Origin: Ginglymostoma cirratum
Taxonomy: Eukaryota
Length of the DNA: 64,000 nt
NCBI GenBank assembly: GCA_024137785.1
Contig: JAHRHZ010000075.1
Coordinates: forward strand, 4,949,068 to 5,013,067
Reading direction: 5' to 3'
Part shown: in pieces, positions 7,030-58,620 of the stretch
How positions within the stretch are numbered: position 1 is the stretch's first letter
Layout of the letters: each line of letters begins with the position of its first letter
Notes under the pieces: model-generated
What the model saw: only the letters and a program-made list of their open reading frames with translations
Databases searched by the model: none
Told to the model about the DNA's origin: nothing
Program-made: the position numbers and the translations under genes

Positions 7030-7155
7030 TATTTCAAAGATCTTGGGGATAAACATCAACTAAGGAAAATAGCATTAAGTGAATGCACACTAAATTACAA
7101 AAAGGAATTTAGCTACTACCATGCAACTGAAAAAGAAATCTTAGCATGGAGATAG
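7030..7155 (+). pseudogene. Possible Ty3/Gypsy RNase H relic
   Basis: Translates LRKIALSECTLN...YHATEKEILAW, resembling the Gypsy PIAFASRTL...Y-TTEKELLA motif. Confidence 0.35.
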
Positions 7156-7199
7156 GGTGACTCCTCCTGATATTTGAGGGATATTTAAGGTTATTACAT

Positions 7200-7668
7200 T
7201 TTTCCCCCTTTATTCATTAATGGGATGAGGGTGTTGCTGGCTAGGTTGCGTTTATGGCCCATCCCTAATTGCCCACAGTGTAGTTCAGAGTCAACCACAT
7301 TGCTACAGTCATAGGTAGGCCAGACCAAGTATGGATGGGGGTTTCCTTCCCTAGAGGACATTAGTGAACCAGATGGGTACTTCCCCAGCAATGGATTCAT
7401 GGTCATCATTAGATCCTTAATTCGAGGTATTTTATTGAATTCAAATTCCACCATCTGCTGTGATAACAAGGTTTAGAGCTGGATGAACACAGCAGGCCAA
7501 ACAGCATCAGAGGAACAGAAAGGCTGATGTTTCGGGCCTAGACCCTTCTTCAGGAAAACAAAATCCACCATCTGCTGTGGCAGACTTTGAACCTGGGTCC
7601 CCAGAACGTTATCTGGGTCTCTGCGTTAACAGTCTAGCAATAACACCACTAGGCCATTGCCTCCCTCG
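7200..7668 (-). mobile_element. tRNA-derived SINE interrupted by a Penelope terminus
   Basis: tRNA-like head (tttgaacctggg, B box on minus) near 7585-7665; body ccatctggttcactaatgtcc (minus); tail shared with the LINE at 13225/20970; same family as 26332 and 56280. Confidence 0.75.
7463..7563 (-). mobile_element. 101-bp Penelope 3' terminus (hammerhead + tail) with 16-bp TSD
   Basis: TSD tccaccatctgctgtg at 7447-7462 and 7564-7579; minus strand CTGAAGAagggtctaggcccGAAAcatc. Confidence 0.85.
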
Positions 7669-8109
7669 GCTGGAGGGAAAGGAATTCATCTTTGTTTCTG
7701 AGATTGTCCCAATAATTCTTCCTTGGTGTATAATTCATGTTTTGCCTTTGTGCAGTAAAAATTTGTGTTATTTTGTTAAAAGTACATTGGCAGTCTTTTG
7801 TGAATATGTGCAGTGACTGTCCTTCATGGTAGACAAAAAGAAACGTAAAACACATGGTTTTTTAAGTCGGGTTTCAATCTGGGATCTGACTTGTCCCTAT
7901 CATCAACTGAAACCATAATAAAAGATACATTCACAATTTCCCGACAGGAACTCTTTCTTTTTTCCCCTCTTTTTATTGTAGGATGGCTATGCATTTCATA
8001 GAACTGAATTTTTAGTTTTCAGGTTAACATTGACTAGATGAAATGCACACCACTGTTATCATCTAATAAGAGATAATGGGTCCTACTGTTGCTCACCATC
8101 TTACAGTTG

Positions 8110-38390: not shown

Positions 38391-38428
38391 CATTTCTGAT
38401 GAAGGGTCTAGGCCCGAAATGTCAAGCT
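38391..38428 (+). ncRNA. Minimal hammerhead ribozyme motif (family 2)
   Basis: CTGATGA 38396-38402, agggtctaggccc, GAAA 38416-38419, tGTC. Confidence 0.7.
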
Positions 38429-38644
38429 TTCCTGCTCTATGATGCTGCTTGGCCTGCTGTGTTCATCCAGCTCTTCACTTTGTTATCTCTCATGTTCCGA
38501 GGTACCATCAGTTCTAAGGAAGGATCACTGGACCCAAAACATTAACTCTGATTCCTCTTCACAGATGCTGCCAGACCTGATGATCTTTTCCAGCAACTTC
38601 TGTTTTCCAAACAATTTTAGAAAACAGGTTTACAAACAATGCTC

Positions 38645-47200: not shown

Positions 47201-47852
47201 GGACCCAAGGACCAGCACATTATCTAAAAATGACAGATTGCAGTGATCTGAGATTCAGAGAAATCCGTGTGTCCTAGTGTATGAATCACAGAATATTACT
47301 GTGTGTGCACAGAGAGCAATCAGGCAATCTAATTGAATCTAATCTCTTCCAATTCCTCCTACTTCCTACAGACAAAGGGGGTGGCCATGGGTACCCGCAT
47401 GGGCCCAAGCTATGCCTGCATCTTTGCAGGTTACGTGGAACAATCCCTCTTCCGTACCTACACTGGCCCTAAACCCCACCTCTTCCTCCGTTACATTGAT
47501 GACTGCATCGGCGCCGCCTTGTGCTCCCACGAGGAGCTCGAACAGTTCATCCACTTCACCAACACCTTCCACCCCAACCTGAAGTTCACCTAGACCATCT
47601 CCAACACTTCTCTCTCCTTCTTGGACCTCTCTGTTTCCATCTCGGGTAACCACCTAGAAACAATGTCCATTTCAAGCCCACTGACTCCCACAGCTACCTG
47701 GAATACACCTCTTCCCACCCACCTTCCTGCAAAATGCCATCCCCTATTCCCAATTCCTTCGCCTCTGCCGCATCTGCTCCCAGGATGAGACATTCCACTC
47801 CCGTACATCCGAAACATCCTCATTCTTCAAGGACCGCAACTTCCTCCCCACA

Positions 47853-48572: not shown

Positions 48573-48822
48573 CCTGTTTTTCCTCTCACCTCAAGCCACA
48601 CCCCCATCTCCTATCTACTAACATCATCCCGCCCCCTTGACCTGTCCATCCTCCCTGGACTGACCTATCTCCTCCCTACCCCCCTACCTACACTCACCTT
48701 TACTGGCTCCATCCCCGCCTCTTCGACTTGTCTGTCTCCTCTCCACCTATCCTCTCCTCTATCCATCCTCTATCCGCCTCCCCCTCGCTCCCTATTTATT
48801 TCAGAACCCTCTTCCCCTCCCC

Positions 48823-48860
48823 CATTTCTGATGAAGGGTCTAGGCCTGAAACGTCAAGTT
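48823..48860 (+). ncRNA. Minimal type I hammerhead ribozyme motif (family 2)
   Basis: attt-CTGATGA(48828-48834)-agggtctaggcct-GAAA(48848-48851)-cGTC-aagt; stem I attt/aagt; predicted cleavage after 48855. Confidence 0.75.
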
Positions 48861-48968
48861 TTCCTGCTCCTATGATGCTGCTTGACCTGCTGTGTTCATC
48901 CAGCCCCATGCTTGTTATCTCGGATTCTCCAGCATCTGCAGTACCTTTTATCTCGAATCTAATTGAAT

Positions 48969-57479: not shown

Positions 57480-58620
57480 AATGCGAAAGAAGCTTCTATG
57501 ATTGCATGGGAAAGTGCGATGGGGAAGCGAGGAAGTCTTTGGAGTGAAGGAAAAGTGAACCAGGATGTCACAGAGGAAATAGATTGCTGACAATGGAGGG
57601 AAGGGAAGATGGTTTTGATGGTGACTTCCTGCTGAAAGTGCCAGAAATGGTGGAGAATGATTTTTTGAACGTGAAGACAAGTGGGGTAGAAAAGGAAGAA
57701 CACTTGTACATTCACCTCCTCCCTCCTCACCATCGAAGGCTCCGAATACACCTTCCAAGTCAAGCAATGTCTTTCAGTCTAACCTTTGGTACTCATTGCT
57801 GACAATAGAGTCTCCTCTACATTGGTGAGAACAAACATAAACTGGGTGACCGTTTTGCGGAACACCTCAGCTCTGTTTATGGGAATGACTCTGACCTCCT
57901 AGTTGCTTCCCATTTCAATAAACCCCTTTACTCTCATGCTGAAGTTTCTGTCTTGGGCCTGCTGCAATGTTCCAAGGAAGCACAGCGCAAGCACAACACT
58001 TCATTTTCTGCTTCGGCACATTACAGCTTCTAGGAGTCGATATTGAACTCCACACGTTCAGAGCCTGACTTCATGATGTTTATTCTCCAATGTTTTTTGT
58101 ATTTTCTATCCACCAACACCCCCATCTAAACTCCCCCAACCCCACCACCCAAGGATCCTTGACCTTCCCTACGCAGCCTTGTCTTTTTTGAGGAAGGGTC
58201 ACTCGACCCTTAGTTAACTCTAATTTCTTTTCGTAGATGCAGCCAGACCTGCTGAGCTATCCCAGCAATTTCAGTTTTTCTTCTTGTCTTCTTTGTGTCT
58301 GGTTTTCTTTGCTCTTAGCAGAGAGGACATTCTCTCCCAATTTAGCTTAATTTGCACCCTTTTTACATCTCCATTTCTCTTTCACCACAATTAACAAGCC
58401 TTTTGTTGTTTTGCATTGGGCCTCCACATCATATATTCTTCCCACTCCTCCATCACCTCTGCCAGAGGTTCATAAAAACATTTATAATCCTTTCAGTTCT
58501 GACTGAAACATTAACTCTGTTTTTCTCTCCACAGATTTCTCTCTCGCACCTGCTGGGTTTCCTCAGCGTTTTTTGTGCTTGTTTCAGATTTACAAATCTG
58601 CAGTATTTTGCGTTTATTTG
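57480..58620. mobile_element. Old Penelope insertion: minus fragment 57480-57705, plus GIY-YIG + terminus 57710-58620, extra terminus 58188-58285
   Basis: FYPTCLHVQKIILHHF (minus); ctctacattggtgagaacaaa (LYIGE) and gcggaacacctc (AEHL) on plus. Confidence 0.8.

Follow-up and report, generated by a model that had tools for sequence, protein, structure and literature searches.

The window, which is the whole 64,000-nucleotide stretch of Ginglymostoma cirratum DNA analysed here, contains a SINE that is split by a 101-bp insert at positions 7463-7563 (Table 1). The insert is enclosed by an exact 16-mer that is found only twice in the window. To describe the site before insertion, copies of the host SINE were taken from 160 random 10-kb stretches of the genome and from the window itself. 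Among the 28 copies other than the focal one that span the insertion site, 23 carry the region of the 16-mer once, which is the clean empty state; the remaining 5 have deletions, and none has the insert. Because 23 of the 28 other copies are cleanly empty and none has the insert, the 16-bp duplication is genuine, and the insert with a clean target-site duplication that an earlier note on this DNA had described holds as it was given. A chimeric SINE-plus-ribozyme family was also considered and is ruled out, as the insert is absent from all 28 copies. The head of the host SINE has what we take to be A-box-like (7656-7646) and B-box-like (7593-7583) motifs, and its body presumably resembles shark Deu-SINEs such as SacSINE1, a family described in PMC5499810. 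As for the orthologous site, the pieces listed from the contigs of four sequencing runs cover the unique flanks, and none of them bridges the site; the joints in these contigs derive from other repeat copies. Among relatives, no sequencing run was found to contain half of the words of the focal locus, and the search listed no RNA run with it.

Table 1. Features of the split SINE, of the insert and of the long parent copy in the window.
Feature	Positions	Strand	Description
Host SINE body and tail	7200-7446	-	Outer boundary approximate
Target-site duplication, left copy, 16 bp	7447-7462	+	16/16 identity with 7564-7579; single in 23/28 other SINE copies
Leader/tail of the insert, 63 nt	7463-7525	-	Ends at about +94, the first of two frequent 3' end points
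Minimal hammerhead core, Penelope family A	7526-7553	-	CUGAAGA, helix II, GAAA, degenerate helix III
T-rich 5' junction, 10 nt	7554-7563	-	Takes the place of the helix I 5' arm; no template for it in the long element
Target-site duplication, right copy, 16 bp	7564-7579	+	Exact match to the left copy
Host SINE head, tRNA-type	7580-7665	-	From sequence; repeat boundary at 7665
Parent family A open frame, 295 aa	47685-48572	+	C-terminal part of RT, CX4CXXC linker, GIY-YIG endonuclease
TATA-like box in the parent 3' UTR	48793-48799	+	31 nt upstream of the putative start A
Inr-like motif	48822-48828	+	Its A (48824), 4 nt before CUGA, lies within the 5'-end peak
Hammerhead plus full tail (+1 to +128), long parent copy	48828-48955	+	82% identical to the insert over 96 nt

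Element positions are counted from the first base of CUGANGA, which is +1 and in the insert lies at 7553 of the window (minus strand); the preceding base is 0. Read on the minus strand, the insert has a 10-nt T-rich junction, followed by the core, and extends to +91. CUGAAGA begins 10 nt in from the duplication; 28 nt 3' of its first base is the predicted cleavage site (7526/7525, or +28/+29). The insert is thus a hammerhead core with a short tail (7463-7553), as first described. The earlier note also had the insert start about 10 nt before CTGAAGA; while this position is confirmed, the ten nucleotides turned out not to be element sequence, as long copies have a C-tract plus AUUU at this place, unlike the focal insert. 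As the junction lies outside the element and 7 of its 10 bases equal those of the host continuation, the element may contribute only 91-94 templated nt. All three mismatches to the host continuation are A-to-T on the element strand, and the junction looks as if an A-tailed cDNA end had been patched against the target.

By sequence, the catalytic core (CUGANGA...GAAA) and helix II are present in the insert. Helix I is missing (its first position is C-A), and the palindrome of helix III is broken by a G-to-A change at a CpG. Because there is no helix I, the focal ribozyme is predicted to be inactive. Rfam scans of the whole window at the gathering score and of positions 7150-7750 at E<=10 returned no hammerhead or tRNA match, and the two scans gave two chance hits only; the hammerhead call therefore rests on the motif itself. 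Single-strand folding produced no hammerhead fold for any copy tried, which is expected for dimer-type motifs.

The core and tail of the insert also terminate a long copy at 47.5-49 kb of the window. The 295-aa frame of this parent copy matches PF01541 with E=0.003 and 18.3 bits, which is below the curated cut-off of 22.6. The linker is located at residue 144 of the frame, and an FLRYIDD motif lies upstream, near 47470. A CX2-5CXXC linker is a trait of the Neptune clade, and the linker of the parent is of this type. Judged by these features, family A is an endonuclease-bearing Penelope-like element (PLE) with a Neptune-type linker, and the Penelope origin proposed for the insert is borne out by the joining of the same terminus to an RT/GIY-YIG frame. 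The insert is a very short piece of a Penelope-like element and not an element of its own. Four other termini in the window (24255, 40100, 49770 and 58188) had been listed as starting immediately 5' of the core like the insert. They do begin at or near the core, but they belong to a second, older Penelope family (B), and only the one at 58188 has a candidate duplication, of 8 nt. Other PLE remains in the window are a family B copy with an RT fragment and an inverted terminus (25001-26160), a family B palindrome (27053-27301), a family A inverted pair spanning a 400-N gap (37166-38489), and decayed Penelope-like RT/GIY-YIG frames on the minus strand (34974-36704), two of which were scanned without a Pfam match at E<=0.01. 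Elsewhere in the genome, short family A copies appear by eye to lie inside the same SINE family at different positions (L129:2766, L285, L301 and L228), which probably reflects the abundance of this SINE.

To see where copies of the element begin, we collected family A from a random sample of 160 stretches of 10 kb (1.6 Mb), of which 679,666 bases (42%) read N, and obtained 122 arms. The end of an alignment can be off by about 3 nt, and arms with an N-reading or cut-off flank were all counted as long, which is the worst case. The 5' ends fall at -6 to +2 in 32 of the 73 arms at risk (0.061/nt), compared with 1 of 41 at -7 to -46 (0.0006/nt). From the rate of about 0.009/nt in +50 to +3, 4.6 ends would be expected in the peak (Poisson p 7e-17). 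Counted by insertion event (n=99), 30 end in the peak, 21 extend upstream, 17 are censored and 31 end further 3'. With a tail-only query (29 loci), 18 of 23 arms at risk end in the peak. In family B (98 arms), the peak holds 38 of 60 arms. The bin of the predicted cleavage site holds only 1 of 97 family A arms and 2 of 85 family B arms. Thus, the sharp peak just before CUGANGA that the earlier note had expected is present, it is not at the predicted cleavage site, and the distribution is not the smooth one of ordinary truncation.

The pile-up was also seen in exact, alignment-free matches across the 4.36-Gb genome. There are 62,373 exact 18-nt cores, and requiring 3, 5, 9 or 16 upstream bases reduced the number to 53,459, 32,113, 23,616 and 19,741, respectively. 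The steepest loss is at -3/-4, and most ends are at -2 to -4. Taking the last counting step as the mutation baseline (0.975 per base), we estimate that about 52% of the cores, some 32,600 copies, end within 9 nt. Taken together, the 5' pile-up is sharp and real, and it is likely that the shared stopping point marks the start of the element RNA.

The sequence around the peak has promoter-like motifs. An Inr-like motif with A at -3 is present in 58 of 64 long copies of family A and in 9 of 13 of family B. Upstream of this A is a TATA-like box, at a distance of 31+/-1 nt in 58 of the 64 A copies and of 27-30 nt in 10 of the 13 B copies; these counts are two families' worth of evidence and not 77 independent cases. 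Families A and B are otherwise different upstream, yet the spacing of TATA and Inr is common to both. The bases around -3 fit what we take to be the initiator consensus, and a DPE/MTE match at the presumed canonical spacing is unconvincing by eye. The A at -3 (48824 in the parent) is the putative transcription start. Short copies have no upstream TATA-like box.

At the other end of the element, the 3' ends of family A lie in two clusters, near +94 and near +127, with about 33 nt between them. In the random sample, 44 of 122 arms end at +89 to +100, and 65 of 122 end at +123 or beyond, on a reference sequence that stops at +128. The focal tail ends at about +94, which is a putative RT start site. 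Inverted pairs account for 46 of the 122 arms, and tandem arrangements are also present. By hand count, the two arms of an inverted pair differ in 3'-end type in 21 of 23 pairs (p=3e-5). These head-to-head pairs (L031-L220), with +94 in one arm and +127 in the other, suggest that priming uses one RT start site on one nicked strand and the other site on the second. L005:1505-1669, a short copy that begins with the ribozyme and has a 12-bp duplication, shows a third, less common 3' end at about +164. At four independent loci of differing subfamilies (L221/L028, L228, L238 and L249), a front-end segment is joined to a short unit at about +203; this is a possible third RT entry or jump site, the position being partly biased by the end point of the query.

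Arms that span the ribozyme and continue into the 5' ORF region (n=18) are provably front-end copies. Seven of them start at -5 to +3, 6 read through from the upstream 3' UTR, and 5 start at +8 to +19. Because 6 of the 18 continue from the 3' UTR and 5 start at +8 to +19, read-through RNAs also act as templates. Within 3 kb per locus, no full-length copy was found among 30 loci with 5' ORF-region sequence, which include one duplicated locus and the query's own. The junctions themselves are varied. Of 5,828 matches, the first 100 listed include 47 with a G just before the start. Inspection of 20 of 40 such G loci found 9 inverted pairs, 1 mutated long copy, and an unexplained G in about 4 of 10 solo or tandem loci, so that in these 20 loci the excess G is mostly accounted for by inverted partners, templated joins or re-copied ends. 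Telomerase-like re-copying of the end was seen in 4-5 of 10 selected solo loci and was not enriched in an unselected set (2/50 vs a background of 111/1965). At L285, L293, L297, L299, L143, L261 and L201, the first 7-12 nt are directly re-copied at the 5' junction, reminiscent of telomerase-like realignment.

We consider it fairly probable that the RT primes on the first repeat of the element RNA and runs off at the transcript start. The copy left behind would have no promoter, and its ribozyme is predicted to be inactive. The RNA would be started by Pol II at the A four bases before CUGANGA, from a promoter that lies in an upstream copy's 3' UTR. It would hold the internal RT start sites twice, in its leading 130 nt and once more behind the ORF. 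A cDNA of 95-130 nt that ends at the RNA 5' end, often with slipped or untemplated T's at its junction, would result from priming on the first repeat; priming on the last repeat would give the long, ordinarily truncated copies. In both cases the template would be RNA that is not cleaved by the ribozyme. The run-off product, having neither the TATA-like box nor helix I, is predicted to be a dead end. The share of short copies (about 52%) is near the 1:1 expected from two priming copies. The two-repeat RNA, its start at -3 and the run-off are what we infer from the positions of the ends and motifs. The short cDNA would be like retroviral minus-strand strong-stop DNA, which is a short cDNA extending from an internal primer to the RNA 5' end. 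Unlike retroviral strong-stop DNA, the proposed run-off product would be target-primed and integrated directly, with no tRNA primer and no strand transfer shown.

Less likely, with a modest chance of being right, is a block by structure or protein. The RT would prime on the last repeat and halt at the 5' edge of the ribozyme, as at a telomerase-like template boundary, or a 5'-to-3' exonuclease would trim the RNA to a protein-bound ribozyme. The peak does coincide with the 5' edge of helix I, which has 4 pairs in subfamilies A1 and B. In A1 and B the start A itself pairs in helix I, and the run-off and block explanations therefore overlap in position. In addition, a 6-7-bp hairpin between about -26 and the core is predicted in family A, the PLE RT is telomerase-related, and the Anolis ribozyme is described as protein-assisted in an excerpt of PMC11167929. 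However, the 3' arm of helix I would be met first by the RT, so that helix I would already be open when the peak is reached. In A2, where the inspected long copy L011 has only 2 helix-I pairs, short copies are as many as long ones or more (16 short to 10 long). Families A and B, different upstream, nevertheless share the TATA and Inr spacing. Beyond the peak, ends are rarer by a factor of about ten or more, which points to two classes of template. Since helix I would already be melted, the 2-pair subfamily peaks equally and the TATA/Inr frame is found in two families, a run-off at the RNA 5' end is likelier than an RT stop set by the ribozyme fold. The fold-set stop was one of two explanations offered in the earlier note.

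A further possibility, somewhat more doubtful than the block, is that the short copies are stranded strong-stop intermediates of the normal cycle. The RT would always prime on the first repeat and make a strong-stop cDNA to the transcript start, and this cDNA would have to jump to a 31-nt terminal redundancy at the RNA 3' end, as in retroviruses with R, the redundancy being defined by hammerhead cleavage. Successful jumps would give long copies and pseudo-LTRs, and failed jumps would give the short ones. Long copies have clean junctions in 47 of 51 cases with no excess of chimerism at the junction (4/37 vs 3/38 within the tail), which argues against jumps between different RNAs. These results are not evidence against jumps within one RNA. 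If true, strand transfer would give the PLE ribozyme a job and would account for the pLTRs.

The other explanation of the earlier note, a non-autonomous ribozyme mini-retroposon, is improbable. In this case the short copies would, as SINEs or retrozyme monomers do, give rise to transcripts of their own and be moved again in trans. The estimate of about 30,000 short copies would fit such a unit, and duplications of 8-15 nt were found in 9 of 27 solo-class short copies (a class that includes unrecognised tandems and inversions), compared with 1.6% of 702 mismatched controls. PLE-derived non-autonomous elements have also been described (excerpts of 10.64898/2026.07.22.740005 and PMC8557442), and many independent masters would give no single clade. 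Nevertheless, a tree of 30 short and 26 long arms had 18 label changes, compared with 19.0 after shuffling, and 182 of 500 shuffles were as low; the tree (56 rows, 93 columns) is poorly resolved and left out arms with N-reading flanks near the core or with other end points. Same-label nearest neighbours were 0.51, compared with 0.49 after shuffling (p=0.43), and all four motif-defined subfamilies contain both short and long copies. The short copies, which were to be checked for a clade of their own, are thus interspersed with the long ones, and a mini-retroposon lineage is therefore not supported. Nor was a lineage apart from its autonomous parent, as expected of a retrozyme, seen among these 56 rows, and the tandem units of retrozymes, each with a complete ribozyme, are absent: the insert is a single unit inside a duplication. 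The short copies have no TATA-like box either and, judging from the Anolis element, would also be without the downstream protein-binding region. Their 5' junctions are variable and not common to the copies. The one-extra-C junction of the focal copy is rare and heterogeneous, and an 'extra C' subfamily is ruled out: there are only 406 exact matches, 12 of the 30 inspected are T-to-C changes in long copies, and a related pattern with a long upstream sequence and an inserted C has 3 matches.

Slightly weaker still, and very unlikely, is an RNA 5' end made by processing, either by splicing at the ribozyme 5' edge or by self-cleavage of the ribozyme. Splicing at this edge occurs in D. virilis (excerpt of PMC4209133), and family B has a pyrimidine tract and a CAG ending two bases before the core. 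On the other hand, there is no AG at the family A peak, the short copies listed have no shared upstream exon, the duplications often abut the start, and the cleavage bin is almost empty in both families. Finally, an alignment or masking bias imposed on ordinary smooth 5' truncation, for which the uncertain alignment ends and the N-reading bases might speak, is hardly credible, as the peak persists under worst-case flank counting, in alignment-free genome counts and in a second family.

Family A was compared with known systems through excerpts of the papers cited. EN+ Penelope-like elements (PMC8557442) and family A are alike in having an RT with a C-terminal GIY-YIG and a CX2-5CXXC linker, a hammerhead in the pLTR, heavy 5' truncation, and tandem and inverted copies; their optional 30-40-bp tail at one end matches the two 3' clusters of family A. 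Truncation of these elements is high with no fixed 5' stop given in the excerpt, whereas about half of family A copies end within 9 nt at a point framed by TATA and Inr. The Anolis Poseidon element PAc showed internal RT initiation in vitro at two sites on uncleaved RNA, and no RNA-seq reads begin or end at its cleavage site, according to the excerpted text of PMC11167929. Like the putative ones of family A, the two internal RT start sites of PAc are 3' of the hammerhead and match genomic 3' ends; the sites of family A, at about +94 and +127 from the core, differ from those of PAc, and the same text of PMC11167929 describes no run-off copies or 5' pile-up, unlike what is seen in family A.

Minimal PLE hammerheads (excerpt of PMC4209133) share with family A a core without a helix III loop, the palindromic 15.2-16.2 and an extra base before helix II. 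They are mostly single dispersed motifs, 'probably related to truncated PLEs' (PMC4209133). The focal copy differs from them in having lost helix I and the palindrome, and the circular templates proposed in PMC4209133 are not required by the ends in family A. Non-LTR retrozymes (excerpt of 10.64898/2026.07.22.740005) resemble the insert in being short, hammerhead-bearing, pLTR-derived and non-coding, with dispersed monomers. They have tandem units and complete ribozymes, while the insert is one unit within a duplication, its ribozyme is broken, and the short copies form no clade.

In the Penelope pLTR of Adineta vaga (excerpt of PMC3846280), an Inr-like sequence likewise follows a putative TATA box at a distance of about 20 bp, and this element has 8-10-bp duplications and a 31-bp optional tail. 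The Adineta promoter was a motif guess from few copies, whereas tens of thousands of ends align here. Penelope of D. virilis has an internal promoter with a 5' intron (excerpt of PMC2377424), unlike the layout of family A, and the promoter layout is therefore not universal. Neither a fixed 5' stop nor run-off Penelope copies came up in the literature searched, mostly outside subscription papers. As far as the excerpts go, truncated PLEs are a known source of single hammerhead motifs (PMC4209133), and retrozymes derived from PLEs, monomers included, are known as well (10.64898/2026.07.22.740005). The insert itself is an ordinary, probably inert copy, a by-product of a known class and not a new mobile unit.

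For Penelope-like elements, the questions at stake are where the RNA starts, where it ends, how it is copied, and what job the hammerhead has. If run-off at the transcript start is true, tens of thousands of short insertions would be an in vivo map of where the transcript starts and of both RT start sites. Uncleaved RNA would be the usual template, and the internal initiation seen in vitro would be extended to a vertebrate genome. Dispersed 'retrozyme monomers' or 'ribozyme SINEs' could then be by-products and not mobile families.
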